IMG/VR virus record: IMGVR_UViG_3300049049_000183 | Span: 1-27,156 of that record | Length of the DNA stretch: 27,156 bases | Origin: a virus | Taxonomy: Duplodnaviria; Caudoviricetes | Reading direction: 5' to 3' (one strand) | In this document: positions 1-20,391 of the stretch, one piece after another | How positions within the stretch are numbered: the first letter of the stretch is position 1 | Layout: every line of letters begins with the position of its first letter | The notes under the pieces: model-generated | The model's input: the letters and a program-made list of their open reading frames with translations, nothing else | Told to the model about the DNA's origin: nothing | Databases searched by the model: none | Program-made: the position numbers and the translations under genes

Positions 1-242
1 CGCAGCTGATGCGCCTGCTCGACACCTCCAGCCGTGCCGAGGGCGTGCGCATCTACATCGGCGGCGAGAGCCAGGTCGTGCCGTACGAGGAGCTGTCCAT
101 CGTGTCCGCGCCCTACGAGGTCGACGGCCAGGTGGTCGGCACGCTGGGCGTCATCGGCCCGACGCGCATGGCCTACGACCGCATGATCCAGATCGTCGAC
201 ATCACGTCGCGGATGGTCGGGCAGGCGCTTTCCCAGCGTTGA
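1..242 (+). CDS. hrcA: Heat-inducible transcription repressor HrcA, C-terminal part (5' end outside window)
   Basis: Translation contains IYIGGES...[27 protein letters not shown], the characteristic HrcA C-terminal GVIGPTRM motif; TGA at 240-242. Confidence 0.95.
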
Positions 243-275: not shown

Positions 276-314
276 GGGCCGTTAGCTCAGTTGGTCAGAG
301 CAGAGGACTCATAA
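276..314 (+). pseudogene. 5' half of host tRNA-Ile2 (anticodon CAT), truncated at the anticodon loop; prophage attachment junction
   Basis: GGGCCGT-TA-GCTC-AGTTGGTCA-GAGC-A-GAGGA-CTCATAA gives acceptor 5' strand, D arm, anticodon 5' stem and loop. The next bases (GGTCCC...) do not continue the cloverleaf and no T arm or CCA follows. C4/C5 favour Ile2 over Met. Confidence 0.9.
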
Positions 315-399
315 GGTCCCGGACAGACCGCCACGAATGGACGAAGACCCTTTACCCATGCGGGTTCTAAGGCGGCAGAGGTGCAACGTCTAAAAACTG

Positions 400-418
400 C
401 TTTCCACCAACTTTCCAC
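400..418 (+). repeat. Tandem direct repeat CTTTCCAC x2; candidate integrase arm-type binding sites
   Basis: CTTTCCAC at 400-407 and 411-418 (11-bp period), partial inverted copy GTGGAAG at 449-455, about 90 bp from the att core. Confidence 0.55.
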
Positions 419-468
419 TTTGGCCTGCGGCATATAAGTCACCGCCCGGTGGAAGGCTATCCGCGGCA

Positions 469-484
469 CTGTATGAAAATACAG
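469..484. promoter_or_regulatory. LexA (SOS) box
   Basis: CTGT-ATGAAAAT-ACAG, an exact CTGT-N8-ACAG match with AT-rich spacer in GC-rich DNA, 3 nt before ATG 488. Confidence 0.85.
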
Positions 485-487
485 TAC

Positions 488-859
488 ATGTTGGTCGACA
501 TCATCGAACTCAGGCACTGTGACCACGCCCGGGACCGCGATGCGGTGCGAGCGACGGTGCCTGTGCGGGTGACCATCGACATCGACAGGTTCTGGACGCA
601 CGAGAACCTGGACCGGCCCAAGGTCCACGCGAGCGTCCATCCGATGGTGCTCGAGCCGCTCTACGACGTGCGCATCCGATACTGGCGGCGCGTGAACATC
701 GTGTTGACCGGCCGCCAGCGGCAGGCCGTCCCTGGTCGCAAGAGCAGCGAGGCGATGTATGAGCAAACCTGGTGGTGCCGGCTCGTGTTGGACCCGACCG
801 TTCCACCCATGGCTCCCATCGCCAGGAAGCGTCTACCGGCGACCTACAATGCGTCTTGA
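488..859 (+). CDS. Hypothetical prophage protein (123 aa), probably SOS-inducible
   Basis: ORF with GC3-rich codons (MLVDIIELR...YEQTWWCRL); ATG 488 directly follows the LexA box (alternative ATG 473 lies inside the box). Confidence 0.7.
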   Translation: MLVDIIELRHCDHARDRDAVRATVPVRVTIDIDRFWTHENLDRPKVHASVHPMVLEPLYDVRIRYWRRVNIVLTGRQRQAVPGRKSSEAMYEQTWWCRLVLDPTVPPMAPIARKRLPATYNAS

Positions 860-861: not shown

Positions 862-1154
862 GGGCCGGACGCCGTGTTGGTTGCAGGCAGCGGACTCATA
901 GCAATAGTTGTGCACCCCGTCGGAAACGGCGGGTGTGAATGGCGTCAAATTCGGTGGAACCTGACGGCTGCGATGCAGCGCAAGGCAATGCCGAGCCAAG
1001 CCCCGCGAGGGGAAGGTGTAGAGACTAGACGGCGCCCGCCTAACGCTCGAAGAGAGCCATGGTGAAGGCATAGTCCAGGGAGGTCGGAAACGACCACAAA
1101 CCGGAATCCGTCAGCGAAAGCTCATCGTGGGTTCGAACCCCACCCGGCCTACCA
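862..1154 (+). tRNA. Prophage-borne intron-containing tRNA(CAU), probably Ile2; exons 862-899 and 1105-1154, 88 nt spliced, long variable arm
   Basis: Acceptor GGGCCGG/CCGGCCT, D stem GCC/GGC with GG in loop, anticodon stem GCGGA/TCCGT, loop CTCAT^AA, V arm AGC-GAAA-GCT, T arm GTGGG-TTCGAAC-CCCAC, A73 and encoded CCA. Possible -10 TACAAT at 845-850. Confidence 0.9.
900..1104 (+). ncRNA. Group I self-splicing intron, subgroup IC3 (Azoarcus tRNA-Ile type), 205 nt, no ORF
   Basis: IGS GTG pairing with exon CAT (G.U at splice site), P2 with GAAA loop, P3 GGCGTC/GGCGCC, P4 TTCGGT/GCCGAG, P6a CCCC-GCGA-GGGG, GTGTAGAGACTAGACGG, P7 GACTA/TAGTC in AAGGCATAGTCC, P9 GGTCG-GAAA-CGACC, ends CAAACCGG (omega-G 1104) then exon AATCCG. 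Confidence 0.96.
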
Positions 1155-1164: not shown

Positions 1165-2154
1165 CTACACCTTCTTGGTGTAGTGCTGGTCGAAGACCTG
1201 CAAGATGTTCGCATTGAAGTACGGCTTCTTCGGGCCGGCCGGGTTCTCCAGGTCCAGATAGCGAACCTTCGCGTAGCGCTCGTCGCCAAGCAATGGCTTC
1301 CGCACAGCGTGGAAGTCGTTGTTCATCTTGAAGTCGCTGTAGCGGTCGTTCAATCGCTTGCACAGCTCGTCGTAGGTCCAGGGATATCGTTCCTTGATGT
1401 CCTGTTCCCCAAGCGTCACTTTGATGGCATCGGCGTCCCTGGAGATTTGAACCTTCGACGCAGTGGCAAGGGCGCTTTTCTCCAGCTTGACCTGCAGGCG
1501 GATAGCCACGGCGTAGTCGCTGTCGCCATCGCCCACCTCTTGTGCGAGGTTCTTCAGGTGCTCGATGAGGCGAGATTCATCCGCGGAAACGACGACGGCG
1601 CCAGCCTCCTGCGCGGGGGCCACAAATGACAGCGGCAACACCAGGTTCAGGATGCCTGCGAAGTCCTTCGCGAACCAGCTCTTGGCCAGCAGGATGAAGT
1701 TTCTGACTGAAGCTGCCGCAAGCTCTTGGGTCTGTCGGGCCAGCGTCGCGCTTGCGGTGATGAAGTGAACGCTGTTGTCGCGGATTTCGACCAAAGCGTC
1801 GAGATTAGCCTTCACCTCCTTCGCCAGCTTGGTCGCGGGGGCCGCATCAAGCTTCGTGATGCAGGCACCCAATGTGATGGAGTGGGGGTTGCCGGCGCGG
1901 TTGCGCTTCAGGAACTTCCGCTCCGACTTGACACCGGCAGCAGTCAGGCGCGTCTCATACACCCGGAGGGCGGAGATGGCGTTGTTGGCATCTTTCAAAA
2001 CCTTGGCCTTGAGCAGCAATTCCCAAGCGTTCAGGGCCAAGATAGCGAAGGTCTCTTCCCTGTAGAGGAAGCTCGGCTTGTTGTAGACCTCCACCGCCGC
2101 GGTGAGCGCAGCTGCGGCTTTGTCCACGAACCTTTGATGCAGTGGCGGTCTCAT
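1165..2154 (-). CDS. DUF3644-domain protein (HEPN-like putative RNase), 329 aa, candidate defence/toxin
   Basis: N-terminal AVEVYNKPSFLYREETFAILALNAWELLLKA typical of DUF3644; RDNSVH is an Rx4H motif; ATG 2154 preceded by AGGGAGG. Confidence 0.82.
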   Translation of the reverse strand: MRPPLHQRFVDKAAAALTAAVEVYNKPSFLYREETFAILALNAWELLLKAKVLKDANNAISALRVYETRLTAAGVKSERKFLKRNRAGNPHSITLGACITKLDAAPATKLAKEVKANLDALVEIRDNSVHFITASATLARQTQELAAASVRNFILLAKSWFAKDFAGILNLVLPLSFVAPAQEAGAVVVSADESRLIEHLKNLAQEVGDGDSDYAVAIRLQVKLEKSALATASKVQISRDADAIKVTLGEQDIKERYPWTYDELCKRLNDRYSDFKMNNDFHAVRKPLLGDERYAKVRYLDLENPAGPKKPYFNANILQVFDQHYTKKV

Positions 2155-2494: not shown

Positions 2495-3415
2495 TCAGTA
2501 CCAAATTTCGACCATGCCAGGGCCGCCAGGGCCGCCGCCGTTGCCGTTGGAACCGCCACCGCCACCGCCGCCAGGTGCGTGGCCTGTCTCGCCGCCGGAA
2601 TAGGCGTTGCCCGTGCCACCAACGCCGCCCATAGGGCTGCTACTGCCGTTGGCGGGATAAAGGGTGCTGCTAAAAACCGCGCCCATGCGGGAAGCTTCGC
2701 CGGTGAGGTTGATGTCGCCGCCCGAGGCGCTGCCGCCGTTGTGTGAGCCACCGCCGCCAGCAGTCATGCCAGCGCCAAAGCCTGTCGGCGGGCTTACAGA
2801 GCTGTCGCCGCCAGGGCCGGGCGAAGCGCCTGCAGAATTGCCAAAGGTGCCGCCATGCCCGACGACAATCGTCCAGACTTGGCCAGGAGTCACGTCGCGA
2901 ATGAACTCTGCATAACCTCCGCCAGCGCCGCCGCGGCCGAACGTGGTCGGTGTAGTGCCGGGGTTGCCTTCGCCACCTTCGCCGCCGCCCCATGCGCGGA
3001 AGCGGGCACGCGTAACGCCAAAGGGGACCGTCCAATAGAAGGTGCCGGCAATGTCGTAGCGCTGAACAGTCGTGAAGCCGCCACCACCTGGGGGGCCAAC
3101 CAACGAGATACCGGCAGGCCACGCGTCAGCGGACTTGGGGCCGTAGAGCGCGGTCGCAGTGATGTCAATGTAGAAGTCACCGTTGGCCCCAAGCGAGTCA
3201 TCCGGCGCGCCAGAGCCGCTGTGCAGGGAGTTGCCAGAACCTCCCGCGCCAATGAGTTCGGCGAGGTAGTTCGTGCGGGCTACCAGTGCGACGGCTTGGG
3301 CGTTCATCGTCCCGTCCGCGCCTCCCCGGGCGATGCAAGGGACGCTCAGTTGCGGCACATCGACCCAGGCCGGTGCGGCGACGACAACGCCATCGAAATC
3401 AGCAGGTGTGGACAT
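2495..3415 (-). CDS. Glycine-rich tail fibre / receptor-binding protein
   Basis: Fibre-type N-terminus (WVDVPQL..GGADG..NAQAVALVARTNYL), GSGAP..G.NGDFYID..LYGPK motif, Gly-rich C-terminal domain (WTVPFGVT..AWGGGEGG..GGAGGGY..GMVEIWY). Confidence 0.8.
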   Translation of the reverse strand: MSTPADFDGVVVAAPAWVDVPQLSVPCIARGGADGTMNAQAVALVARTNYLAELIGAGGSGNSLHSGSGAPDDSLGANGDFYIDITATALYGPKSADAWPAGISLVGPPGGGGFTTVQRYDIAGTFYWTVPFGVTRARFRAWGGGEGGEGNPGTTPTTFGRGGAGGGYAEFIRDVTPGQVWTIVVGHGGTFGNSAGASPGPGGDSSVSPPTGFGAGMTAGGGGSHNGGSASGGDINLTGEASRMGAVFSSTLYPANGSSSPMGGVGGTGNAYSGGETGHAPGGGGGGGSNGNGGGPGGPGMVEIWY

Positions 3416-3439
3416 TGTTGTTGTTCTCCATGCAGGGCG

Positions 3440-3976
3440 TCATCGCTTGATGCCGTCCAAGATTTGGCTGCCATCGAGGCGCCAGGTGCCGTCAAGGCGC
3501 AGCGGTGACTGCTGCGGGACGTCGACCGGGGTCAAGTGCTCCCAGTGCCCAAGTCCCCGCACGCCAATCTGAACCGGTGAGCGGCCGAAGCCCGCGACAT
3601 GCACAGTGATTTGCGCGCACAGCTCGTCGCTGCGATGCCATTCGACGTGGATGTCCACCTTCGTGGCCACACCGTCGTCGATGAGCCACTGAAGGGCCTC
3701 GGCGATGAATGCCTCGGCGAGACCAAGGGTCGCGGTCGTGTGCTTCGCTCGCGTGAGCAGCCACAGGCGCGAGCCGATGGCGTTGTTGGAGCTGTCCGCC
3801 CACCAGCCGCGGCGGTCGGTCGTGCCGTCTGTGAGAACGTCGTCCGGCCCAGCCAGGCGGTCGGTGAACAGCGAGATGAGGACTGCAGTGACGATGTCAT
3901 CCCCAGACTCCAGGTCGGCTCCCGCGAGCGACCAGTCGCCGTAGGTGGTGTGCCAGAGAGTGGAGATATCCGGCAT
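3440..3976 (-). CDS. Mu gp46-like baseplate wedge protein with C-terminal LDGxWxLDG extension
   Basis: TAVLISLFTDR...RGWWAD...IGSRLWLL.RAK...AEALQWLIDDGVA signature of the GP46 family. Confidence 0.9.
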   Translation of the reverse strand: MPDISTLWHTTYGDWSLAGADLESGDDIVTAVLISLFTDRLAGPDDVLTDGTTDRRGWWADSSNNAIGSRLWLLTRAKHTTATLGLAEAFIAEALQWLIDDGVATKVDIHVEWHRSDELCAQITVHVAGFGRSPVQIGVRGLGHWEHLTPVDVPQQSPLRLDGTWRLDGSQILDGIKR

Positions 3977-3978
3977 CG

Positions 3979-4692
3979 TTACGTCCGGATGATGTAGTTC
4001 AGCGCGACGTTGCGCGGCCGGGTTTCGGTGCCGATGACGCCCGGCGGGTTGACCGTGCCGTCGACGTCGCTTCCGTCGTTCGTCCAGTAGAGGTAGTCGT
4101 CGTTGTCGGTGCCAGCGTCAGAGCCGAAGTGGCCGCGGCTGTCGGAATGGCCGAACGGCGCGCCAGCTGGGTATTCGCCGAACGGGCTCGCGTGCTTGTG
4201 GGTTTGCACCTGGCCAGCTTGCGACGAACCGAGCGCACGACCGGCATCGACGCCACGACCGGCATCCGCGCCACGGATGAACTCGCCGCGCAGGTCAGGG
4301 ACGTTGAAGGTCGTGCTGCCGTCGCCGGCGCCGAACGTCGTCCCGATGGCAGCGAACAGCGCCGGGTAGTCGTCACGGCTTACCGCGGAGCCATCGCACA
4401 GCAACCAGCCCGTCGAGGGACTCGAGGATGCCGTGGCAACCACACTGCCTGTTGGCACTTGGTAGCGCATCTCCAGCGCCTGCTGAAGCTGCGTGACGTC
4501 GGTCGCCGAAGGCGTGAGGCCCGCGGCCTCGATGACACCAACAATTTCCTGCATCAGCTGATACCACGCGTAGGCACCGGGCACGGTGGGGGCTACCGAG
4601 CCCAACACGCCGTTGGTCGGGTAGCCCGCAGAGCCAGGTGACGGCGGGGTGGGCGGAGTCGGCGAAGCGCCGGACTCAAAAAGCATCTTCAT
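3979..4692 (-). CDS. Tail fibre protein with tail-collar domain
   Basis: Mu-type fibre N-terminus (QEIVGVIEAAGLTP..TQL), collar motif GWLLCDG.AVSR..YPALFAAIGT.FG.GDGSTTFNVPDLRGEFIRG, C-terminal ETRPRNVALNYII. Confidence 0.9.
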   Translation of the reverse strand: MKMLFESGASPTPPTPPSPGSAGYPTNGVLGSVAPTVPGAYAWYQLMQEIVGVIEAAGLTPSATDVTQLQQALEMRYQVPTGSVVATASSSPSTGWLLCDGSAVSRDDYPALFAAIGTTFGAGDGSTTFNVPDLRGEFIRGADAGRGVDAGRALGSSQAGQVQTHKHASPFGEYPAGAPFGHSDSRGHFGSDAGTDNDDYLYWTNDGSDVDGTVNPPGVIGTETRPRNVALNYIIRT

Positions 4693-4705
4693 TGGCAGGG
4701 TCCAA

Positions 4706-5338
4706 TCAGGCGAACACAACGTTGGTGTGCGCAGGGGCGTAGCGGCTGATAACCGCTTGCAGGGCCGCGTTGCCGCTCGCTCCGGTCACCAGCCATGAAA
4801 ACGCCCACGCGTTGCCGCGTATAGGAACCGTGCAGTCGTCCGTGGTGAAGGTCGGACGGTATTGCGTGATGCCGATGGTCACGCCGAACGCGGCAGCGAC
4901 CCCGACGAAGTAGGCGATGCTGGCGCCGCCCACGGAGGACAGCGCGGCAATGACCTGTGCCTGTTGGCCAGCGAGCGTTGGAGCGAGCGCTGTGCCGTCC
5001 GCTGGCAGACCGAGGGTCGACTGCCACTCCGCGAGCAGGTATTGGGACGATGCGGGGAACGCGTCTTCGATGAGGTCGTTGGCGTTCGCACTGACCCGTT
5101 GAAAACTCGCCGCCAGAGCTCGAACCACGGCCGTCTGCGTGGAGTCTGGGTCGCGTGGCCATGCCCGCCCCACCGGCAGGAGGTTCTGCAGCGCGCCGGC
5201 GTAGTCGGCCACCGTGTATTTCGGCGCGTTGCCAGGCGGCGTTACCGCGGCCAGAGCTGCGGCGTAGTCGGCGAGCGAGCCGCCACCGGGGACCGGCGAC
5301 ATGCCCCCGGCTTGAATGGCTTCGATGAGCGCGCTCAT
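4706..5338 (-). CDS. Mu gp48/YmfQ-like baseplate protein (DUF2313)
   Basis: DYAGALQNLLPVGRAWPRDP...LLAEWQSTLGLP...PAHT motifs; directly after baseplate J. Confidence 0.88.
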   Translation of the reverse strand: MSALIEAIQAGGMSPVPGGGSLADYAAALAAVTPPGNAPKYTVADYAGALQNLLPVGRAWPRDPDSTQTAVVRALAASFQRVSANANDLIEDAFPASSQYLLAEWQSTLGLPADGTALAPTLAGQQAQVIAALSSVGGASIAYFVGVAAAFGVTIGITQYRPTFTTDDCTVPIRGNAWAFSWLVTGASGNAALQAVISRYAPAHTNVVFA

Positions 5339-6468
5339 GCCCAGGTCACCGTGCCCATGGTCGGCAGATGGCCGACGGGGACAACGATGCTCGCTGCGGG
5401 AGTGGTGAGAACGCCGGCGCTGGTGCCCGGCACGTTGGAAATCGCGCCCTCCAGCGACAACACGCTAATGGTGCAGCCCAGGGCCGAGCCTTGTTCAGCA
5501 ATCACGGCAGCCAAGTTCGCCTGCACAGCGGCCTTGACGGTCGGGGAAGCAGCGCTCAGGCCGGTGATGGTTAGGTTGATGGGCTGCGGAACCGCAGCGA
5601 CAACGTAGACCAGGGCCGTGACGGGCTGCAGCGGCATGATGTAGTCCGCGACTGCCAGCAGGTCGCCGGTAGCCTGAACGCCGCGGGTCTCGCTGGTCGC
5701 TACGCCGTTCGTGCCTTGCGGGAAGCCACCGTGTGCGGCTTCCGCATGGTCGAACATCGGGTATACGACGACGCTTCCCGGGCCGTAGCCGTTCGGAGCG
5801 ACCCACACGCGCGTGACGCCTGGAACTTCGAGCGTCCACTGTTGATAGTCCGCGAGGCTGCCACCGTGACCAGGGTTGCGATACGCCCGCAGCATGCGGT
5901 CGCGAAGAGATTCATCAGTCTCCAGGTCGGCACCGCCGGTGAGCGCGTCAAACACCGTCACCGAGGACGGAACACCCGCGAACGGAACGCCAAAGGAGAG
6001 GATGGAGCCTGCAGGCGTGTTTTGAATCGCACCCACAAGGCCAGACGGGTCAGGAACACCCTTGACCGGAATCGTGAACGGTGAGGACGTGGACGTGGTG
6101 ATGGCCGCAGTCGTAACGAACTTCTGGCCGTCGCCGCGAACCAGCGTCGTGCCTTCTGGGATGACGACGCCTGGACCCGTCCCCATGTGCCCTTGAACGG
6201 AGCCGGTGGCGCTAGCCGCGGGCAGGCGATACACGCCCTTTACTGCTGCCCAGGACTCCAGGAACTCGCCCGTCGATGTGACCGGGGTCGACTGCTGCCC
6301 CACCCAGTCGATGTAGCCATAGAGCAGGTAGGTCAAGCCGGCGAGCGCCGTGCCCAGGATGCCCAGGTTGGAGAACCGGAGCAGCGGGTCTGAGCCAGGC
6401 AGCGCCGCGGCGATGTCTTGCGCGGCTTGCGTCTGTAGCTGTGAGATGGTTGGACGGGGAAACGGCAT
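5335..6468 (-). CDS. Baseplate J / Mu gp47-like protein
   Basis: MPFPRPT start, GGADLETDESLRDR..GG...DY..W..EVPGVTRVWV motif. Confidence 0.93.
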   Translation of the reverse strand: MPFPRPTISQLQTQAAQDIAAALPGSDPLLRFSNLGILGTALAGLTYLLYGYIDWVGQQSTPVTSTGEFLESWAAVKGVYRLPAASATGSVQGHMGTGPGVVIPEGTTLVRGDGQKFVTTAAITTSTSSPFTIPVKGVPDPSGLVGAIQNTPAGSILSFGVPFAGVPSSVTVFDALTGGADLETDESLRDRMLRAYRNPGHGGSLADYQQWTLEVPGVTRVWVAPNGYGPGSVVVYPMFDHAEAAHGGFPQGTNGVATSETRGVQATGDLLAVADYIMPLQPVTALVYVVAAVPQPINLTITGLSAASPTVKAAVQANLAAVIAEQGSALGCTISVLSLEGAISNVPGTSAGVLTTPAASIVVPVGHLPTMGTVTWA

Positions 6469-6479
6469 CGTTGTCTTTC

Positions 6480-7076
6480 TTATGCGATGGGCTGGCCAGT
6501 GGGATTGCCCGAGCTGGCGCTGGTGTGACGATGCGTCTTCAACGACAGGGCACCCAGCTTGACGTCAGGCGCGGAAATCACACCGGCCGAGGTCACGGGA
6601 CCGCCGAGGGTCACCGCGTCCGCACTGGTCTGCTCGATGACGCCATCAACGTGTAGGCCTTGGTTGGCGTGCAGCGGCGCATTGACGTCCACACGTGTAG
6701 CGTTCTGCAGGGTGATGGTGCGTGAGCCGCCGGCGTCAAGCACGATGCCCGAGGCAGAGAGGTGGATGTACTGGCCGCGGTTGTCGTAGATGGCAACGTC
6801 GCCGTTATCCAGCGCCTTCATGCGGAACTGCTGGTTGTTCGTTGCAACGATGATTCCGTTCGAGCGCTCGCCAGCGAGGAACACCACGATGGCGTCCGTG
6901 CCCACGGGAGGCACTGACGTGAACCCGTACTCGGCCGCCCGCGGAACGTCTCCAATGAGCTCATCGGCGCCCATGCGGACCTGCATGGTTTGCACAACGC
7001 CTGCGTCGTTGGTGTCCGTTGAGCGGCCACGGCCCACGACTTGCTGGATACGCCGCCAGAGGTGCTGCATCGACAT
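6480..7076 (-). CDS. Baseplate spike, Mu gp45-like
   Basis: EYGFTSVPP..AIVVFLAGERS..GDVAIYD motif; C-terminal HxH (THRH) metal-binding tip. Confidence 0.92.
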   Translation of the reverse strand: MSMQHLWRRIQQVVGRGRSTDTNDAGVVQTMQVRMGADELIGDVPRAAEYGFTSVPPVGTDAIVVFLAGERSNGIIVATNNQQFRMKALDNGDVAIYDNRGQYIHLSASGIVLDAGGSRTITLQNATRVDVNAPLHANQGLHVDGVIEQTSADAVTLGGPVTSAGVISAPDVKLGALSLKTHRHTSASSGNPTGQPIA

Positions 7077-7079
7077 CGG

Positions 7080-8210
7080 TCAGCCCCCCGGCTTCGGGGC
7101 AACCCCCGACAGCTCTTTGATGGGGTTGAGCTTGTTCAAGTCGTAGGGCTCTGGCTCGTAGGCGCCACTCAGCATCAGCGTCAGCTCGCACGAAGTGCCG
7201 GCTTCGTTGCGGTGATACGTGACCTCGCCGATGGTCAAGTTCGCGCTCTTGACCTGCAGCGTCGGCAGCTCGACCAACGCCTGGGTGTTCGGGCGATACA
7301 GCACGCCAGCGGAATCACGCCATGAGTCGGTGATGAGCTGCACGACGTTCGAGCGGCCGATGCGTCGGTTCTTCTCCCACGCCGCTCGCTGGCCAGCGAT
7401 GGCGAGGCTGGAGACACCGTTGATTTCGACGATAAAAATCTTGCGGCGATGCCGTGGCACCGTCGGGTCCTGCACTGCGGCGATGAGGTCGGAGCCAATG
7501 CCGGCGTCCTTGAACATCTCGACGCTTTGCATGTAGGACTCGTATTCGCTGTAGCGCTGGTCCAGCATTGCCGAATAGGTGGCGCGCTGGACGTTGATGC
7601 CTTCCCGGAACCCGGAGGCGGCTTGTTCCTCTTGCAGCGCTGAGAGCATCAGACTGCCATCGGGCATGTCATACGCGAGCAGCTGTGCTGCGCGACAGAG
7701 CCGCTCGATGATTTCAAACGGGGTCTCGCCGCGGTTCAGGTTGAACTGGGGAATGGCCGGGCCGTCGTTGCCATCGTGCGAGGCCACGGTGATGCCGTAG
7801 GGCGCCGCCAGCTTCTGGGCAATCTCAAGGACGGAGGAGCCGACGATTTGGCCACCAGGCCACTCGGCTGAGCAGTCCACCAGGTCGGCGCACTTGCTGC
7901 GGCCCACGATGGTGACGCTGTGCGACCGCGCGTCGTAGGTGCGCGTGACGCGGTCCACATAGCCGGTCAGCACAAGGTCCCGCCCAATCTTCACCTTGAC
8001 CGTGGCGCCGCGCAGAATCTTGATGGCGTCCTGGCCGGGGATGAACTCCGTCAGGCGCACTTCAAAATCGGAGGGGCACCGCTCGACGCCGCGCGTGATG
8101 CGCACGTCGGTCCAGCCAGTCCACGCGAGACCGTCGATTTCCAAAGTCACGTCGTCGTCAGGCAGAGACCTCTGCTCAACAATTTCGGTGGAAGTGGCGT
8201 CGACGGTCAT
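7080..8210 (-). CDS. Baseplate hub, Mu gp44 (gpP)-like
   Basis: GWTDVRITRGVE..F, TGYVD, GRSKCADLVDCSA, GETPFEIIERLCR motifs. Confidence 0.92.
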   Translation of the reverse strand: MTVDATSTEIVEQRSLPDDDVTLEIDGLAWTGWTDVRITRGVERCPSDFEVRLTEFIPGQDAIKILRGATVKVKIGRDLVLTGYVDRVTRTYDARSHSVTIVGRSKCADLVDCSAEWPGGQIVGSSVLEIAQKLAAPYGITVASHDGNDGPAIPQFNLNRGETPFEIIERLCRAAQLLAYDMPDGSLMLSALQEEQAASGFREGINVQRATYSAMLDQRYSEYESYMQSVEMFKDAGIGSDLIAAVQDPTVPRHRRKIFIVEINGVSSLAIAGQRAAWEKNRRIGRSNVVQLITDSWRDSAGVLYRPNTQALVELPTLQVKSANLTIGEVTYHRNEAGTSCELTLMLSGAYEPEPYDLNKLNPIKELSGVAPKPGG

Positions 8211-8214
8211 CAGG

Positions 8215-9525
8215 TCAGGAGCTCAAGGCGGAGAAGGTGGTTGGCATGAACGCTGGGTTCGGGCAGTCAGCACGCCGGACCAATTCGGGCTCGCGCCCGA
8301 TGTCTTGATACAGCCGCTGCGCCAAGACCAGCGAAGGGACAGAGCTAGGTGTAGCTACCGTCACCAGGGATGGCAGCCTCGCGCCTTTGGCGTTCATGTC
8401 GCGGATGACCTCGGCCCGCGCAGCTCGGAGCGCAGCGTAGACAGCGTCGTTGCCCTGCTCACCCGCCACCTTGATTTCGGAGTCGACGTAGCTCAAGACC
8501 TCATCGCGCACCGCAGTGGCTTCCAGTGCCGTGCTGGGCTGGTAGTCGCCCGAAGCGGTGCAGAGCTGGGTGACGGCGAGCCGGCGCAGGTAGTCGGCCG
8601 TAGAGGCGGAGGTGAGCGAGGTCGCAGCCGCCAACTTGGTCATGGCGATGGCTGTGGCAATCGCAGACGCTGGCGAGAAGCTGGCTGCCTTGACCGCGGC
8701 CACATGCCCCGTGACGGCCAGTGTGAAGAGCGCTGACGTTGTCGCCGTCAGGTTGGCAGCTGCGGAGGACACTGCCCGAGCCGACACGTCAACGGAGAGG
8801 CGAGCTGCAGCTGCGGCTCCGTAGAGCGCCGACACAGGCTTGGAGACAGTCTGGATGGCACCGATGACGATGCCGGTGGCCTGCCCGACCATCCGGCCGA
8901 AGTTGCCGGAGGCCTGCGTAGCAATGCTGACCAGGTTCGTGGCGCTTGCCACGGCGGATTTGCTGCGCGAGAGCCAGTCCGTTGACACCGCGGCCACCGT
9001 GGGCTGAACGGGAGCATTGGCGGCGAACTGAGCGTTGATTTCGTCGAGCCATTGTTGCGTTGACTTGGACTGCACCTCTGCGGCAGCAGCGTTGATGGCG
9101 TCGGCGCTAGCCACCGCAGTGCCCGGAAATTGGCGAGCCGCGGTGTCTTCGACAAACGTGGCCTCGAACTCGAACACCCGGCCGCGTTCCCAGTGCTCGT
9201 TGGTAGAGAAATCCAGCAGCTTGACAGTGAGGCGGCCGAAAGTGGGATGCACAAGCTCGCCGGGGCCTGGCTTCTCGCAGGCCGCAATGAGGGCATCCCG
9301 CTGGGCGATGGCGTCGTCGCCGACGACAAACCCAGAGATGGAGTAGCGCCGCAGGCCGCGGCCCAAGTCCTCCACCCATGCGGTGTCTTTGAAGGGGTAC
9401 TCATGGACGGCGGTCCGGCGACCGAACTTCGCGCTTCCGCCGAACGTCTTGAAGGGCACGCCACGCCAGGAGGCCGGCTGCAGCTGAGCGAAGAACGAGC
9501 TGGGGTTCTGTGTAGTAGTCATCAC
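8215..9525 (-). CDS. Mu gp43 (N)-like DNA circularisation / tail protein
   Basis: ASWRGVPF..GRRTAVHEYPF.D..WVEDLGR..GPGELVHPTFG; C-terminal PSLVLAQRLYQD..R..EL. Confidence 0.92.
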   Translation of the reverse strand: MMTTTQNPSSFFAQLQPASWRGVPFKTFGGSAKFGRRTAVHEYPFKDTAWVEDLGRGLRRYSISGFVVGDDAIAQRDALIAACEKPGPGELVHPTFGRLTVKLLDFSTNEHWERGRVFEFEATFVEDTAARQFPGTAVASADAINAAAAEVQSKSTQQWLDEINAQFAANAPVQPTVAAVSTDWLSRSKSAVASATNLVSIATQASGNFGRMVGQATGIVIGAIQTVSKPVSALYGAAAAARLSVDVSARAVSSAAANLTATTSALFTLAVTGHVAAVKAASFSPASAIATAIAMTKLAAATSLTSASTADYLRRLAVTQLCTASGDYQPSTALEATAVRDEVLSYVDSEIKVAGEQGNDAVYAALRAARAEVIRDMNAKGARLPSLVTVATPSSVPSLVLAQRLYQDIGREPELVRRADCPNPAFMPTTFSALSS

Positions 9526-11102
9526 GAGTCGATGTCAGCCATGGAACGGGTGACCTTCACGGAAGCAGGCTGGCCACCTGAAGAAGCGTTCGAGACGACC
9601 ATGCCCCGCGGCGCGTTCTCGAACTTGACGTGTAGGGTGTGGTTGAGCGCTGTCTGTCCCGCCTGAGCGGTATCGCCGCCTTGTCCGGGAGGGTTGGACG
9701 GTGGGGCGATGGGCGGAAGCGCGAGCTGTTTGTTGGCCGCGGCAAGGTAGTCCTCGACGGAGTCACCTTTGGCGGGTGGCTTCGGCGGCGCGAACTTGGC
9801 GATGTTGTCGCTGACGGTCGCGAGCCCGTCCCGGTCTGTCGGGAGCGCGGGCCGGGGAAGGGCACCCGACAGCAGGCCCGGCGGCACGGGAATGGCCGGC
9901 GGCAGGCGGCCCATCACCACCGACGTATGCGGCGGTGGGATAAATGGAGCGGCAGCGCCCGCGGTAGGCGATGCGAGCTGGACCCGCGCCGCCTTGGCAC
10001 CCGCAGGTGCAGCGCCTGTCGCCGCACCTGTTGTAGACGGCGCAGCGGGCACTGCCGTCTTGCTCTTGGAGCCCGCTGCTTTCAGGGCAAGAAGCCCCGG
10101 CAGAAGCGCGGTGCCTCCTGGCATCACGGCAGACAGCGCAAACAGAGACGAAGTCGGCATGTTGGCCGTCTTACGCTCCAGCGTATCCAAGAAGCTGCTA
10201 GAGCTGTCCGCGTTGGCCAAGTCGTCGATGCCCCGGATGATTTTCTCTAGAACCGGGTAAACCTTCGAGCCGATGGTGTTGCCCAGGCCGTCCGCGGAGG
10301 CCTTCAGCTTGTTGAGCGCCTTGGCGTAGGCCTCGGCGTTCTTGATAGCCTGGGGGCTCAGCACAGCGCCCAGCTTGTCGGCCTGCTTCGCGTTCTCCTC
10401 GAGCGCATCGGCTCCCTTCATCATCTGAGGAAGGACCTTCACGTAGCCGACCATGTTGGCGGCAATCTCTTTAGCTTGTGGCGTGAGGTCGGTGCGCGCG
10501 GAGTAGTCGGCAAGCTTCTTGAGGGCGTATTCGACGTCCCAAGCGCCGTCCTTCGTGCGGCGGAGCTCGATTCCCGCTGCGTTGAAGAACTGCAGCAGCG
10601 GGCCGCCTTCGTAGTAGGCGTTGCGCATCGAGCGGCCAATGTTGGCCATCGCCTCCTGCATGTCGTCGCCTGAGCCACCCATGAGCTTCACGGCGCCCGC
10701 GTAGCGCTGCAGGGCATCGGTGGAGATGCCTGTGACGGTAGAGAGCTGAGAAACCCTGAAGCCTGCGTTCGCGACTTTGGACCCCAGGACTGTCAGACCT
10801 GCGCCGATGGCGGCGATGCCAGCGACTACGCCCCCCGCTGCGCCGGCCGCTCCAATACCGAGCAGCCCCTCCATCGACGCCGAGCTGATTCCGATGTTTT
10901 TCGCTAGCTTTGCTGCGGAGTTTGCTGCGGTGCCGAAGCCCTTCGCCAGCGCCGGGAGGTGCATCTCCTTGCCCAGGGCACCGAGGGACCGGCCCATGCG
11001 CTGCACGGGCCGAACCGCCTTGCCAAACCGCTCGTTTATGCGATTGACGACCGCAGTGGCTTTGTCGACCGCGGTGACGGTGATTTGAAAGGTGTTGGAC
11101 AC
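9522..11102 (-). CDS. Tape-measure-like protein (526 aa)
   Basis: ITVTAVDKAT N-terminus, Ala/Gly-rich helical body, position between tail chaperone and gp43; GTG start. Confidence 0.8.
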   Translation of the reverse strand: MSNTFQITVTAVDKATAVVNRINERFGKAVRPVQRMGRSLGALGKEMHLPALAKGFGTAANSAAKLAKNIGISSASMEGLLGIGAAGAAGGVVAGIAAIGAGLTVLGSKVANAGFRVSQLSTVTGISTDALQRYAGAVKLMGGSGDDMQEAMANIGRSMRNAYYEGGPLLQFFNAAGIELRRTKDGAWDVEYALKKLADYSARTDLTPQAKEIAANMVGYVKVLPQMMKGADALEENAKQADKLGAVLSPQAIKNAEAYAKALNKLKASADGLGNTIGSKVYPVLEKIIRGIDDLANADSSSSFLDTLERKTANMPTSSLFALSAVMPGGTALLPGLLALKAAGSKSKTAVPAAPSTTGAATGAAPAGAKAARVQLASPTAGAAAPFIPPPHTSVVMGRLPPAIPVPPGLLSGALPRPALPTDRDGLATVSDNIAKFAPPKPPAKGDSVEDYLAAANKQLALPPIAPPSNPPGQGGDTAQAGQTALNHTLHVKFENAPRGMVVSNASSGGQPASVKVTRSMADIDS

Positions 11103-11128
11103 GGTGACCGCCTGTTCTTGTTGTTAGC

Positions 11129-11308
11129 TCATGCGCCAGCTTGTTGGGTGCTGGCGATGCGCTTTGATTGGTCGTACCACCACAGCAGCTTGGGCAATGT
11201 CAGCTGCTCCGCGTCTTTTGGCCCCCAGCGATAGAAATAGGTGACGTCGGCGATTACGTCGAGGATGTGGACGCCTTCTCGGGGAGTTTGTTGAATCCGT
11301 CCAAAAAA
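11129..11308 (-). CDS. -1 frameshift extension of the tail assembly chaperone (P2 gpE'-like)
   Basis: Slippery T TTT TTG (11308-11302) opens a 59-codon -1 frame ..IADVTYFYRWGPKDAEQLTLPKLLWWYDQSKR..; TGA at 11131-11129. Confidence 0.8.
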   Translation of the reverse strand, partial: FFGRIQQTPREGVHILDVIADVTYFYRWGPKDAEQLTLPKLLWWYDQSKRIASTQQAGA

Positions 11309-11526
11309 TCAGCGCACCTCGCCAAGTCACGTTGCGTCATCTTGTTCAGGACCTGTGGAGGGACCTTGCCCACGAGCTCGATGAGCTTGAGGACGCTGCG
11401 GAGCCCAGTGAAATCGGCTGCGGCGAGTAGATGCTCGACCAGCGGCTGAGTTAGCGTGAGCGACTCGTACACGGCGGTGCCCACGGTGATGGGCTTCTCG
11501 AAGGTCAGGTGGAGGGTGTCGTCCAT
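11254..11526 (-). CDS. Tail assembly chaperone (Mu gp41/P2 gpE-like)
   Basis: 90 aa between tube and tape measure; L..PI...Y..LTL..P and M..RD....DF pattern. Confidence 0.82.
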   Translation of the reverse strand: MDDTLHLTFEKPITVGTAVYESLTLTQPLVEHLLAAADFTGLRSVLKLIELVGKVPPQVLNKMTQRDLARCADFLDGFNKLPEKASTSST

Positions 11527-11529
11527 TGC

Positions 11530-11898
11530 TTAGGCCTCCTCGACCAGCGGACCCTGGAACTCCACGTCGAACGTGCCTTCCTGAGTCTTCACTTCTTGGG
11601 CGCTGACGGTCCACATTCCGCCGCCGGTGATGTTCTTGCCGTTGGCCAGCTGAGCAATCACGGAGACGTTTGTCATGGCATTGATGCTCGCAACGGAGAG
11701 GTTCGACGCATCGCGCAACTGCCCTTTGATGAAGCCGGCGACCGGCTTCTCGGAGTAGCCGTGAACGGAGTCCTGTCCAACGAGCGTCTCGCGCTCGACG
11801 GTGGCAACGCGGTACTCGAGGTCGCCCGCGAGCATGTACTGGACGCCGTCGACGCTGATGTATGCGACGCCGGCAAGGCGTGGGGATGCGATGGCCAT
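11530..11898 (-). CDS. Tail tube protein (Mu gpM-like)
   Basis: RLAGVAYISVDG..RETLVGQD.VHGYSEKP..LANGK motif; AAGGAG RBS. Confidence 0.92.
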   Translation of the reverse strand: MAIASPRLAGVAYISVDGVQYMLAGDLEYRVATVERETLVGQDSVHGYSEKPVAGFIKGQLRDASNLSVASINAMTNVSVIAQLANGKNITGGGMWTVSAQEVKTQEGTFDVEFQGPLVEEA

Positions 11899-11918
11899 AG
11901 GCGGCTCCTTGTGAGATG

Positions 11919-11942
11919 AAAAAAGCCGCCCTCAGGCGGCTT
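11919..11942 (-). terminator. Terminator-like hairpin between sheath and tube genes
   Basis: Minus strand GCCGCC-TGAG-GGCGGC followed by TTTTTT. Confidence 0.7.
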
Positions 11943-11966
11943 GGGGTAACTTGTGTAGCTACCGAC

Positions 11967-13448
11967 TCACTGGAGGCGAAATTGGGCCAGCACAGCGAAG
12001 ATGCGCAGCTGGGCAACCAAGGTAGGCGGATACAGCACGTCGACCCGGTTCGGGTTGGTCTTGTTCTGCTCGACCACCAGTTCTTGCTTGAACTGTTCGA
12101 TGTTCTGCAGATAGCCCTGCGCTTCGAGCGCGCGTGCTTGGTTAATGATGGCCGCGCGGATGATGGCCGGCGTCACGATGGCCGCGCCGGCGGCGAACCG
12201 GGTGCCGTCGGCGGCCAGCTTGACGCGTGCGAACTTCGAGGTCACTACGGAGCGCAGGTTGCGTAGCACGTAGGCCAGCGTGTAGAGCGTCTCGACTTGC
12301 AGGTAGCTGTTGTCAGCGTCGCCGAACGCGTTGGTCTGGTAGGTCGTGATGGCGTTCTCGATGCTCACGGTGCCATCGGCGGCCACGTCGAACGTGGAGA
12401 TGCCGGTGTAGAGCAGCGTGTTGCGGTCAGTCAGCGCAAACCGGCTGGCCAGGGGAGGCGGCAGGATGCCTGGCAGCACGACGGTCTGCAGCGGCAGCGC
12501 GGGGTCGACCTTCAGGCTGGCCGCAGCTGCTCCGCAGTAGACCGCGGCGCGCAGGTGTGCGGGCGTCGGGCAGTTTTTGAAGCCGATGATGGACTCGTAG
12601 GGGTTGTTTCGCGCCGCACCGAGGGTCGTCAGCGCGCCGAGCGTGCCATCAGCCGAGGCGAACACACCGCCGTAGAGCTGCTCGCTCCAGGACCAACGAC
12701 CCGTCGAGGCGTTCAGCAGCGTCTTGAGCGCGTCCAGCGACGTCGTGTCGGTATACGGGGAGCAGATGAAGTCGAACGTGTGCGAGCCCAGGTTCGCCAG
12801 AGCAGCGGTCAGGTCCGGAGCGCCGGCACCGCCATGAGGCTGGGTGATGCTGAACGTCAGGCCAGCTGGGGTCGCTTCGCCACCCAGGGTGCCACGGTAG
12901 TTCGTCTGGAGGATGTAGCCGTTGCCGCATGGTCCCTTGTTGGCGGCGGTCAGCGTTACTTCGGCGCTGTCGGCTACCGCAGTGAACGGGCAACTCGTGT
13001 CGGAGTTGATGAGCGCGGCCAGGGCGGTCGCAATCTGGGCGGGCGTCTGCGTCGTCAGCACCGGAAGCTGGTAGCGAACGTCGCCGATGTAGAGGCTCAG
13101 GACGCCGTTCGCGGTGGCAGCTGCCGTGAACTCAATGGAGCCAACTGCGGCGACGGAGCCGGCGGCGTCAGCCAGAGGGAGATACCAGACTTCGCCCAGC
13201 GAGTCAGCCAGGCGATATTTCGCCAGCATCGCCGCGAGCATCGACCGCGGTCCGCCAACAGCTTGTGCGTCGCCCAGGCCCTGAGAGATGACGGGGACGT
13301 TGGCAACGCCGGTGCCGTCAGCGGTCATCTGACCAATGATGAGAGACCGTTGGGTGGCAGTCGCCGAGTTGGCGTGCGAGTTGTCAACTTCCGCGTAAAA
13401 GAGCGGAACGCGGATGTTCGACGGAAGGTTTTTGAAGGGGATGGTCAC
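11967..13448 (-). CDS. Tail sheath protein (Mu gpL-like)
   Basis: IPF..LPSNIRVPLFYAEVDNS N-terminus; TTYQTNAFGDADNSYL; NPNRVDVLYPP.L..QLRIFA C-terminus. Confidence 0.96.
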   Translation of the reverse strand: MTIPFKNLPSNIRVPLFYAEVDNSHANSATATQRSLIIGQMTADGTGVANVPVISQGLGDAQAVGGPRSMLAAMLAKYRLADSLGEVWYLPLADAAGSVAAVGSIEFTAAATANGVLSLYIGDVRYQLPVLTTQTPAQIATALAALINSDTSCPFTAVADSAEVTLTAANKGPCGNGYILQTNYRGTLGGEATPAGLTFSITQPHGGAGAPDLTAALANLGSHTFDFICSPYTDTTSLDALKTLLNASTGRWSWSEQLYGGVFASADGTLGALTTLGAARNNPYESIIGFKNCPTPAHLRAAVYCGAAAASLKVDPALPLQTVVLPGILPPPLASRFALTDRNTLLYTGISTFDVAADGTVSIENAITTYQTNAFGDADNSYLQVETLYTLAYVLRNLRSVVTSKFARVKLAADGTRFAAGAAIVTPAIIRAAIINQARALEAQGYLQNIEQFKQELVVEQNKTNPNRVDVLYPPTLVAQLRIFAVLAQFRLQ

Positions 13449-13678
13449 GAGCGGCGCTCCTGCTGAATGTTGTTGGAATTGGCCTTACGCGGCGGATTGG
13501 CCGGAGCGGCACTCGGGTCGACGCCAACGCTAACGTCCGCGTCAGCAATGCGCCGAGCCCAGTAGTGACTGAGCTCGACCAAGCGGCCCTCCGCGGGCAG
13601 ATATCGAGCCGGCGTTCGGACTACCGCCGGGTCGACGATTTGCATGCCCGGCTTGGGAACGACGTAGACGTGTGACAT
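13445..13678 (-). CDS. DUF2635 / Mu gp38-like small tail protein
   Basis: VVPKPG..I.DP....LP.EG..V....YW.RR..D.DV motif; overlaps the sheath start. Confidence 0.85.
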   Translation of the reverse strand: MSHVYVVPKPGMQIVDPAVVRTPARYLPAEGRLVELSHYWARRIADADVSVGVDPSAAPANPPRKANSNNIQQERRS

Positions 13679-13742
13679 TGCGTGGCGCGGCATTCGGTTT
13701 GTGTGGCTCGTATAGGCACCTGCCACGCGCACCTGCGCCAGC

Positions 13743-13856
13743 TCAGGCTTCCATGCCTGCCGCGAAGGCCTCGGCGGCTTCACGAGTGGCGAAAGTCCGG
13801 AAGACCACGCCACCGATGACGACTGCGTAGCGGCCGAAGTAGGGTTTGATTTCCAT
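13743..13856 (-). CDS. Small hypothetical protein, 37 aa (MEIKPYFGRYAVVIGGVVFRTFATREAAEAFAAGMEA)
   Basis: ATG 2 nt after the upstream TGA, GC3-rich codons; below the ORF-track cutoff. Confidence 0.6.
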   Translation of the reverse strand: MEIKPYFGRYAVVIGGVVFRTFATREAAEAFAAGMEA

Positions 13857-13858
13857 CG

Positions 13859-15244
13859 TCAGTCCTTCACTGCTTTGCGCTCAAAGCCGGCTTTCAATGC
13901 GGTGTAGTCGCAGTTCAGAGCCCTGTTTGGTGTGCCGTTGAAATACATCAACACGTAGTTGTCAGCGCCGTAGCCGAGGCCGTTGACCACGCCGCCAAAG
14001 CTGTCATGCGGATGGCGTGCGGAGGTCTGGCGCACGAAGACATCGACCACGCCGCCTGTGGGCGTGCTGTGGCGAATCTCGAAGAATCCCAGCTTGGTGT
14101 ATGCGAGGAAGGCGGTTGGCTGGTCTTCGCCCACCAGTGGGCGCACGACCGCGGACTTCTCTGGGGCGCCGACGACCATGCTCACGGCTTGCGCGCACAT
14201 GACGTCGTTCTCGGCGTCGTAATACACGCCCACGCGTGAGCGCATGGCACTGTCGCTGTCCATGACGCAGATGAAAGCCTTCTCAGCGGGGTGATACGCC
14301 AGCACACGACGCACCGAGCTTCGGTTGGCGTTCAGTGCGGCTTGGCTGACCGAGGTGTCGCCGTTGGTCACGCGCAGGTTCAGCGTCTCGCCAAGGTCCC
14401 AAAGCAGCCACTTCGCGAAGGTCAGGCTGCCCAGTCGCATCGCGCATACCTGCGCACCCTCGCCGGCGGTTGAGTCCGCGACGAAGGAACACTGCGTCTC
14501 GCTGCCCCAGTCATCAAAGAGGAAAGCGAATTCGGCCACCAGGTCGAGTTCGCCTTGCGTGTTGATGACGAACTGACCCATATCGCCATCAGGCAACATG
14601 CGCAGCACTACCAGCTTGGTCTGGCCGTCCGCTGTCTTGACCGCCTTCAGCACCAGATACAGGCAGCTCGGCTCGCCAGGCACGAACAGGGCGCTGACGA
14701 CAGCGGCGCTGCTGTATTCGGCGGAGAGGTCGTAGCCGAAGGAGAAGGACGAGATGTCGCCCAAGTTCGGGTCGTAGATGGGCTCGCCCACGCTGTGTGC
14801 GTAGCCCACCAGCGCGTTGCCGTCCCCAATCTGGTCAATAACGGTCAGCCCGGCATCGACGGCCCTCGCGCTCTCGGCAACTGCGTCGTAGTAGGCGCAG
14901 CCCTGTTCGGTGGCGTTCGTCACCTGCGTGTCCAGGAACGTGAAGCCAGCCGGTGCGGGGTGGTTGCCCTGGAGCTTGATGACGGCGCCGGATGGCAGGC
15001 CGGTGGCGGGCGAAGAAAGCTCGCCGATGGCATCAAGCACCGGCTGCAGGTCTGCGCTTGGGATGGCGGCGATAGCTGACATCAGCGTCGCCAGGTTTGC
15101 AGAGGACATGCCCGCGACGGCGTCGATGACCGCCTGCTTGTCTGCGTCTACAAGCGCGTCGATTGCCGCTTGGGCGGCCGCAACGGATTCCGTGGTTGCA
15201 AGGCCGGACAGGTTCGGGTTGATGTAGGTTGAGAGCAGGGACAT
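13859..15244 (-). CDS. Hypothetical 461-aa acidic protein, possible virion appendage
   Basis: Start overlaps upstream stop (TGATG); helical Ala-rich N-terminus, then beta-rich body; inside the structural operon. Confidence 0.75.
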   Translation of the reverse strand: MSLLSTYINPNLSGLATTESVAAAQAAIDALVDADKQAVIDAVAGMSSANLATLMSAIAAIPSADLQPVLDAIGELSSPATGLPSGAVIKLQGNHPAPAGFTFLDTQVTNATEQGCAYYDAVAESARAVDAGLTVIDQIGDGNALVGYAHSVGEPIYDPNLGDISSFSFGYDLSAEYSSAAVVSALFVPGEPSCLYLVLKAVKTADGQTKLVVLRMLPDGDMGQFVINTQGELDLVAEFAFLFDDWGSETQCSFVADSTAGEGAQVCAMRLGSLTFAKWLLWDLGETLNLRVTNGDTSVSQAALNANRSSVRRVLAYHPAEKAFICVMDSDSAMRSRVGVYYDAENDVMCAQAVSMVVGAPEKSAVVRPLVGEDQPTAFLAYTKLGFFEIRHSTPTGGVVDVFVRQTSARHPHDSFGGVVNGLGYGADNYVLMYFNGTPNRALNCDYTALKAGFERKAVKD

Positions 15245-16173: not shown

Positions 16174-16523
16174 GAGATTCGATTCAGTTCGATACGGGCA
16201 TGCCCGTGGCCGTCGGGCTTGCCGGCTTTGACCGTGTAGCGAACGCCTGTGCTTACGCGGACGAGTTCGTCCTTTTGGGCCGCCTCTGGCTTAAACCCTG
16301 CGGGGAATTCCGACAGCCGAACGCCGCAGACCGGCCGGACCGAAATCACACCGGGGTCGCCGTTGCCGTCGAGTGCCACGTTGGTGTAGGCGGTGTCGAA
16401 CACGCCAGTGATATCGAACGGGGACCCGCTGCGCGGGTAGTACGTGATGCGCTCGCCAAAGACCGCGTTGAGCGGTGCAAGAACGAGGGCGTCCCAGTCA
16501 ATGGCCATTTCGTTGCGCTCCAT
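16170..16523 (-). CDS. Head-tail joining (head closure) protein
   Basis: IDWD..VL.P...VFGE..Y.P..G..F.ITGVFD..PDGHG..L motif; start 16523 or 16508. Confidence 0.8.
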   Translation of the reverse strand: MERNEMAIDWDALVLAPLNAVFGERITYYPRSGSPFDITGVFDTAYTNVALDGNGDPGVISVRPVCGVRLSEFPAGFKPEAAQKDELVRVSTGVRYTVKAGKPDGHGHARIELNRIS

Positions 16524-16577
16524 AGGGGAGCGACGGAATGCCGCTCTTGCAACGTATAGGCAAGGGTCGCTAGGGGC

Positions 16578-16606
16578 TTGCCGCGCGAAACCCCGCCCTG
16601 TAGATT
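16578..16606 (+). promoter_or_regulatory. sigma70-like promoter of the moron
   Basis: TTGCCG (16578-16583), 17 bp, TAGATT (16601-16606); GGGAGG RBS at 16620-16625. Confidence 0.6.
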
Positions 16607-16631
16607 ACAAAAGCTAACAGGGAGGCTTAGG

Positions 16632-18118: not shown

Positions 18119-18133
18119 CGCGTAGGCAGGAAG

Positions 18134-18189
18134 AAGCCCCCGAGGCTTGAGGCCTGGGGGCTTGGGGCAGAAGGCCTCTTATGAGGCTC
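18134..18189. terminator. Two hairpins between the convergent moron and capsid genes
   Basis: AAGCCCCC-G-AGGC-TTGAG-GCCT-GGGGGCTT (18134-18163) and GCCTC-TTAT-GAGGC; U tracts weak. Confidence 0.6.
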
Positions 18190-18195
18190 TTGGGA

Positions 18196-19230: not shown

Positions 19231-19256
19231 GGTCGGTCTCTTTCTTGTTATGGGGA

Positions 19257-20349: not shown

Positions 20350-20391
20350 GTTGGGAACCTCAGAGGGAAGTTGTGATGTGTAGGAACCGCG

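Follow-up and report, generated by a model that had tools for sequence, protein, structure and literature searches.

A prophage junction inside a host tRNA(CAU) gene and a candidate replacement tRNA split by an Azoarcus-type group I intron

Introduction

The Azoarcus intron is a 205-nt group I intron of the IC3 class located in a tRNA-Ile gene (PMC3895272). The Ile2.5Ug introns are a classical class in Williams 2020, and such introns have been reported from Acidovorax and Burkholderia (Chan 2021, PMC8450103); the accessible text of these two papers lists them with no tie to integrative elements, and no link between the intron and an integrative element was found in the literature searched. The spread of ORF-less tRNA introns, which have no homing endonuclease to move them, is a long-standing puzzle. 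In tRNA-dependent lysogeny, described from Actinobacteria (Guerrero-Bustamante and Hatfull 2024, PMC10865867), the published targets include tRNA-Ile2-CAT, used by the Gordonia phages OneUp and Mollymur. The accessible text of that study calls for work outside Actinobacteria, contains the word "intron" solely within a reference title and describes no intron-bearing replacement. The tRNA-Ile2 of all ten species in the available supplement of another study, B. cenocepacia included, have a normal shape, and the pairs C4:G69, C5:G68, and G3:C70 are given there as TilS elements (PMC12514573). Class II long arms have been described for tRNAs of Leu, Ser, and Tyr (PMC9976931), and no tRNA-Ile2 with a long arm and A8 was found in the literature searched.

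Results

The prophage and its neighboring genes

The window analyzed here, the whole stretch of 27,156 bases, is a single contig and constitutes the entire record IMGVR_UViG_3300049049_000183. Profile searches identified tail, capsid, portal, and terminase genes around the intron, in agreement with a first-pass annotation that had placed the intron in a prophage. The structural module (2495..27043, minus strand) comprises a Mu-like contractile tail, a lambda-like head, portal, and terminase. The contig ends after the small terminase gene and stops short of the far end of the prophage; no integrase or attR was found on its 27,156 bases. The chromosomal flank of a Roseateles-like host is represented by the 3′ end of hrcA (9..242, plus strand; Pfam HrcA, E 2e-18), with 77 of 77 amino acids identical to two Roseateles loci.

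A 123-aa ORF (488-859) lies behind a LexA-like box at 469-484 (together 469..859, plus strand). For this ORF no match was found in Pfam, PHROG, PADLOC, or NCBIfam and no relative among viral contigs, and an Atlas match of 0.75 was uninformative; judged from its sequence it is not recognizable as a homing endonuclease. A homolog and the LexA-like box are kept together in genome G047, distant from any tRNA. The neighboring cargo directly after the replacement tRNA is a DUF3644 gene (1165..2154, minus strand), a candidate defense gene assigned to PADLOC PDC-S19 (E 9e-136), the product of which has an RxxxxH motif, presumably the one typical of HEPN RNases. Within the head module, on the opposite strand, a 404-aa ORF (16904-18118, plus strand) without a match in four libraries is a possible moron.

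The attachment junction

An orphan 5′ half of the canonical host tRNA(CAU), of the Ile2 type, was identified at 276..314 (plus strand), preceded by a promoter-like site (230-259) and ending with the anticodon loop. The closest relative has an intact intron-less gene whose 5′ half is identical to this orphan, and a matching 3′ half was found nowhere in the window. An intact intron-less gene follows hrcA in 17 close relatives among the 30 loci listed. Similarity to these relatives stops at the 8 bp ACTCATAA (307..314, plus strand), the putative attL common core, and the host tRNA is not rebuilt at this junction. Contigs of the independent runs X3 and X8 bridge attL without differences and run X5 contains a variant attL. 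One X3 contig has a different upstream region, which suggests a second element. Runs X1 and X2, which may be the source of this DNA, contain attR-type contigs in which foreign DNA meets the host 3′ half at these 8 bp, and the P arm of these contigs is nearly identical to the attR arm of an island in genome G049 described below; since these are metagenome contigs among which a second attR type is also present, the link of this attR to the prophage is unproven. Some 85 nt from the core lies a direct repeat (396..422, plus strand), a putative arm-type integrase site, and similar repeats with 11-nt spacing were observed at the same distance from the core at six other loci. One of these, L126, is from a record labelled as an Akkermansia MAG and yet has a Limnohabitans-type hrcA-tRNA-intron locus; the contig is probably mis-binned. 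Taken together, the sequence comparisons place the start of the prophage at 307-314, inside the host tRNA(CAU) gene after hrcA. The first-pass annotation was thus right about intron and prophage but had missed the cut host gene, the replacement role of the intron-bearing tRNA, and its long-arm exons.

The candidate replacement tRNA

About 550 nt inside the left end of the prophage, a tRNA(CAU) of the long-variable-arm type begins with a 5′ exon at 862..899 (plus strand) containing A8 and C9, with a -10-like hexamer at 845-850 (plus strand). The 3′ exon (1105..1154, plus strand) contains a 15-nt variable region with a 3-bp stem and a GAAA loop, the T arm, A73, and an encoded CCA. The unspliced gene was missed by plain ARAGORN and by Rfam; with the intron removed in silico, ARAGORN calls an 88-nt tRNA(CAT). 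In intron mode ARAGORN instead built a tRNA from the host 5′ half and the phage 3′ exon, bridging 792 nt. This join was rejected because its acceptor and anticodon stems mispair, whereas 862-899 pairs fully with the 3′ exon.

The exons are identical at 86 of 88 nt to an intron-less gene placed directly after hrcA, and at another locus (L379) hrcA is followed by an orphan half, an arm repeat, and then an intron-less long-arm gene. The family was also found in viral contigs and Cupriavidus plasmids (10 of 11 matches near full length). Cultured phages gave no full match. Order-wide, it was present in one of 401 genomes and is common around that genome. Metagenomes gave 89 matches in 87 loci, of which 88 are intact and lack an intron and the remaining one is truncated at the end of its contig; 57 of the 89 are intact and lie directly after rpoD. 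Searches with the exact pattern of a long-arm exon followed by this intron returned none in either the viral or the metagenome collections, and nine pattern matches were rejected as chance matches in coding DNA. In large Burkholderiales genomes with several replicons, long-arm tRNA(CAU) genes with A8 and C9 stand at the rpoD-linked site of tRNA-Ile2 (L342:1450-1540, L344-L371), and a long-arm tRNA(CAU) is located on Cupriavidus megaplasmids such as pHG1 (L320:5001-5088). Equating the long-arm tRNA with the tRNA-Ile2 studied in B. cenocepacia was considered and rejected, as the sequence in the available supplement has the normal shape (PMC12514573).

Several observations bear on whether this tRNA works. 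Over 37 long-arm variants the four stems pair in 258/259, 111/111, 185/185, and 182/185 cells. In all five genomes tested, the long-arm gene is the only non-initiator C32-type CAU tRNA found, and these genomes gave no match to a 5′ half of the normal Ile2 type. The pairs C4:G69, C5:G68, and G3:C70 are all present in the replacement tRNA, as are A73 and the CAU anticodon. From its anticodon and these Ile2 elements, the long-arm tRNA looks like a working tRNA-Ile2, and both the replaced and the replacement tRNA likely read the rare isoleucine codon AUA. Over 18 prophage ORFs, 2 of 6184 codons are AUA; the phage itself would thus hardly need the tRNA, and any benefit would fall to the lysogen.

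The group I intron

The ORF-less intron at 900..1104 (plus strand) is of the IC3 type, Ile2.5Ug, as assigned from Rfam, pairing, and covariation. The boundaries first proposed for it hold: it is 205 nt long, preceded by CAT with U-1 at 899, and ends with G1104, after which AATCC follows; the insertion point is position 5 of the anticodon loop of tRNA(CAU). The best Rfam Intron_gpI match (872-1097) has 43.9 bits (E 1.2e-9). As the gathering score is 50, Rfam gave no match in the window at this threshold; the cut-off given in the accessible text of Williams 2020 is 18-20 bits. The earlier claim that P1 to P9 are all present is likewise correct, as P1, its extension, P2 to P9, and P9.0 each pair in the window. 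P1 is formed by 897-899/910-912, with a U899.G910 wobble and a 3-bp extension, P3 by 941-946/1031-1036, and P7 by 1021-1027/1071-1076 with a bulged A1022; P4, P5, P6, P6a, P8, P9.0, and P9 also pair. The core is thus complete, with the P3-P7 pseudoknot, the G-C guanosine site, the bulged A, and P4-P6. In 24 related introns, picked by hand among the intron and hrcA-linked loci listed, U-1 (the U.G wobble of P1) and the terminal omega-G are invariant (24/24), and 98.3% of 925 cells pair, with two-sided change in 76 cells. None of 500 shuffles matched the observed pairing percentage, two-sided cell count, or covariation score, and slid-register controls gave 25-39% pairing. Further pair types did not rise above shuffles (145/500) over the same 24 introns. 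All helices of the intron are backed by covariation.

The length of 205 nt and the tRNA-Ile site agree with the Azoarcus intron, as the first-pass annotation had stated, within the accessible text of PMC3895272. No ORF was found in the intron, the longest stop-free stretch over six frames being 68 codons, and no neighbor on the contig has a match to a nuclease family of the homing kind; for the intron and its neighbors on the contig, the proposed absence of a homing endonuclease therefore stands. The suggestion of a natural variant of a model ribozyme holds in that P3 and P8 variants are present, but the intron is one of at least 85 such introns: the P3 variant is common to 23 of the 85 relatives listed, and the P8 receptor variant occurs in one of the 85. 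The P5 receptor alternates between two forms among the relatives (20/85 and 5/85 by strict pattern, alignment A1), a natural series for tetraloop-receptor studies. In contigs of the RNA libraries X19 and X20 no spliced joint was found, only unspliced sequence, and such contigs cannot decide splicing.

The intron by itself is an ordinary, catalogued class (Ile2.5Ug) that is frequent in Betaproteobacteria; its context is the finding. A 3′-end pattern identified at least 122 loci in GTDB genomes (about 250 estimated), mostly in Betaproteobacteria. Among the loci listed there are at least 85 distinct complete introns of 199-255 nt (median 206), the closest being 81-83% identical and from Roseateles. 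A P7 pattern identified at least 119 loci in viral contigs (about 250 estimated), of which, by pattern, 60 of the 119 listed are of the Leu type and five are CAT^AA. The phage-borne tRNA intron pointed out earlier is hence present, but not rare by itself. At four loci (L003, L032, L056, L111), tRNA-type IC3-like introns lie in apparent protein-coding phage genes. A tRNA-Leu(UAA) gene that is not listed lies at L120:2420-2725 (CP042640.1) between an IS6-family transposase and aac(3)-IId in a resistance module, and is interrupted by a group I intron without an ORF (Rfam E 8.7e-8); this split tRNA-Leu is found in 1280 plasmid records of PLSDB (1257 with at least 80% of the length, 1269 with at least 99% identity). 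Intron-split tRNA genes absent from gene tables were also observed on two large plasmids, Mycetohabitans pBRH01 (L121:3975-4322) and a Tritonibacter plasmid (L122:1921-2249).

Recurrence of the layout in other bacteria

Genome G049 contains a complete island of 9.7 kb, in which an orphan 5′ half is followed 139 nt on by an intron-bearing tRNA, a Phage_integrase gene, and an orphan 3′ half. The two orphan halves together equal the native gene exactly, and the replacement differs from it at 8 of 77 positions. The same layout was observed in G042 with a different group I intron (76 bits), the integrase lying by attR on a separate contig. Neither viral contigs nor 46 further genomes of the genus contained a close relative of the G049 integrase, and two integrases queried against viral contigs gave no relatives.

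The first-pass annotation had proposed a survey of related introns in element-borne tRNAs. Counting loci with at least 300 nt of upstream sequence, we found that 23 of 57 intron-bearing tRNA-Ile2 genes have a strict orphan 5′ half in the 600 nt before them, and that 31 of 57 have some att trace. Upstream of intron-less genes an orphan half was seen in 0 of 25 cases; because this control is enriched in Roseateles, an independent order-wide sample was drawn, and among the 30 loci listed from it the orphan half was again absent (0/30) and a trace, an att core, was present once (1/30). Many of the sampled loci come from related hosts, and these numbers therefore refer to species rather than to independent events. 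The hosts with this layout belong to Polynucleobacter, Limnohabitans, Methylotenera, Massilia, Duganella, Janthinobacterium, Gulbenkiania, Leptothrix, and Roseateles, and Roseateles genes without an orphan half still carry the end of the upstream spacer of the element. The remaining 26 of the 57 intron-bearing genes have no att trace, several being located directly after rpoD or hrcA, and an intact intron-less gene is present in 52 of 101 order-wide genomes. No intron-less 3′ half was found in three of five intron-bearing relatives, and the other two have it only as an orphan. A search for the orphan pattern found eight sites in 7 of 301 genomes, too few for the share of introns among replacements: three are introns starting with AA, two are orphans before an intron gene, and three are orphans that lack a visible replacement. 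At the five viral CAT^AA intron loci, three of which have only about 150 nt of upstream sequence, no att core was found upstream. At L127:5365-5829 and L466/L467, orphan 5′ halves of the tRNA occur in tandem with a spacing of about 230 nt, which would represent repeated nested integration into successive replacement genes.

In an intron tree of 43 rows, the bootstrap of which is not fully settled, the intron nests in a Sphaerotilaceae-dominated clade (17 rows, support 99/100), the other members of which lie in normal-shaped tRNAs. As the exons are of the long-arm type and the intron groups with those of normal-shaped genes, the intron appears to have moved between tRNA types. Sequence common to the two gene types is limited to 8 nt upstream and 5 nt downstream of the insertion site, so reverse splicing or a trans-acting endonuclease would be the simplest route from a normal-shaped tRNA-Ile2 into the long-arm type. 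This route is pure inference, and the accessible text of PMC3984707 reports no direct evidence for reverse splicing.

Discussion

Very probably, the prophage cuts the host tRNA(CAU) gene at the 8-bp core and carries an intron-split long-arm replacement, and we infer integration, splicing, dependence, and spread from the arrangement of the sequence. A tyrosine integrase encoded beyond the end of the contig would integrate the element and destroy the host AUA decoder. Transcription of the replacement may start from the -10-like site at 845-850, and self-splicing would proceed by attack of G after U899 and ligation at G1104, after which the tRNA would be lysidine-modified by TilS and read AUA. 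The replacement likely substitutes for the lost tRNA-Ile2, and the lysogen would then depend on it, as in tRNA-dependent lysogeny. Because elements of this kind put their own copy in place of the resident gene, an intron within that copy would be delivered to new hosts without a homing endonuclease and could persist once the rest of the element decays; the elements would deliver whatever their tRNA carries, be it an intron or a long arm. Carriage by an element as a spread route for an ORF-less intron, suggested in the first-pass annotation, is supported by the orphan-half counts and the layout in G049. To the broader reading, that the endonuclease-free Azoarcus-type intron travels mainly on break-and-replace elements, which overwrite the essential tRNA-Ile2, bind survival of the lysogen to splicing, and leave introns and long-arm tRNA-Ile2 fixed in genera after decay, we assign a probability of about 0.5.

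Tentatively, the intron could instead be adaptive for the element, hiding the crossover site in the replacement gene from its own and related integrases, with splicing restoring the tRNA. The intron begins inside the 8-bp core and displaces its right-hand flank, replacement genes have one or the other of two unrelated introns at this site, and intron-less long-arm genes have been struck by other elements, leaving copies of the 3′ half only at five loci; these observations weakly suggest a shielded att site. However, seven of the eight core bases remain in the window despite the intron, and 22 of the 85 introns listed start with AA and retain the whole anticodon-loop core. At four of the 122 loci listed, the arm is joined to the core and a full intron, so elements have recombined at intron-bearing copies. 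The tandem orphan halves at L127 and the existence of intron-less replacements (L379, L470) also count against shielding.

It is unlikely that the intron is an old chromosomal resident of betaproteobacterial tRNA-Ile2, inherited mostly vertically and repeatedly lost, which elements picked up from their hosts and spread little. The genes without an att trace, several of them directly behind rpoD or hrcA, agree with this, and intron clades broadly match host families; on these two grounds much of the inheritance is taken to be vertical. Yet the closest hosts are intron-less, as is the intact gene in about half of the order-wide genomes, the Roseateles genes without an orphan half retain the end of the element spacer, and where orphan halves and an intron gene occur together, it is the halves that match the native gene and the intron gene that has diverged as the newcomer.

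Still less probable is an ordinary accessory tRNA, for codon supply or to counter a tRNA-cleaving defense, with no relation to integration and with the intron as a neutral passenger. Long-arm tRNAs on apparently lytic viral contigs and Cupriavidus megaplasmids would fit, as would the candidate defense gene adjoining the tRNA, but the anticodon is that of the cut gene, the tRNA lies 550 nt from attL in a layout that recurs across families, and AUA is nearly absent from the phage codons. Finally, a degenerate pseudo-tRNA in a decaying scar or an assembly chimera is highly improbable: an isoleucine tRNA does not typically have A8, C9, or a long variable arm and the unspliced gene is overlooked by ARAGORN and Rfam, but the stems are compensated over the 37 variants, the gene is the sole candidate in five of five genomes, and the junctions were recovered from independent runs.

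The reading of replacement by integrative elements, for which whole-gene replacement would be a DNA-level route of spread that is visible and countable, is best judged beside the systems already described. With Azoarcus-type Ile2.5Ug introns, the window intron shares the 205-nt length, the lack of an ORF, U-1, omega-G, the site after CAU, and the helix set; it differs in its short P6a, its variant P5 and P8 receptors, and its location in a prophage-borne long-arm replacement gene beside an att junction. As in tRNA-dependent lysogeny, the core lies in the anticodon region (8 bp here, 8-17 bp in the accessible text of PMC10865867), the host tRNA is unrepaired, a cognate tRNA is on the element, and arm-type repeats are present; here attL of the 8-bp core comes from the window and attR from G049 and runs X1 and X2, physically unlinked to the prophage. 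In contrast to the published cases, the host is betaproteobacterial and the replacement is intron-split and structurally unlike the replaced gene. The similar elements of G049 and G042 share the tyrosine integrase, the anticodon-centered crossover, and the 3′ fragment at the far end with canonical tRNA-targeting islands (Islander, PMC4383910, as far as its accessible text describes them), whereas here attP would lack the tRNA 3′ half, so that both host halves are fragments and a whole gene is supplied. The long-arm family has the CAU anticodon, C4:G69, C5:G68, G3:C70, A73, and the rpoD- or hrcA-linked position of bacterial tRNA-Ile2 in the accessible parts of PMC12514573, and differs by A8 and a variable region of 13-15 nt with a stem-loop. 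If the proposed reading is true, tRNA-dependent lysogeny would extend to Proteobacteria and become dependent on splicing, and the layout would explain why tRNA and island finders miss such sites. The locus thus unites a known intron class with a new form of a known integration strategy, and adds an unusual tRNA and a link to the spread of the intron that can be counted.
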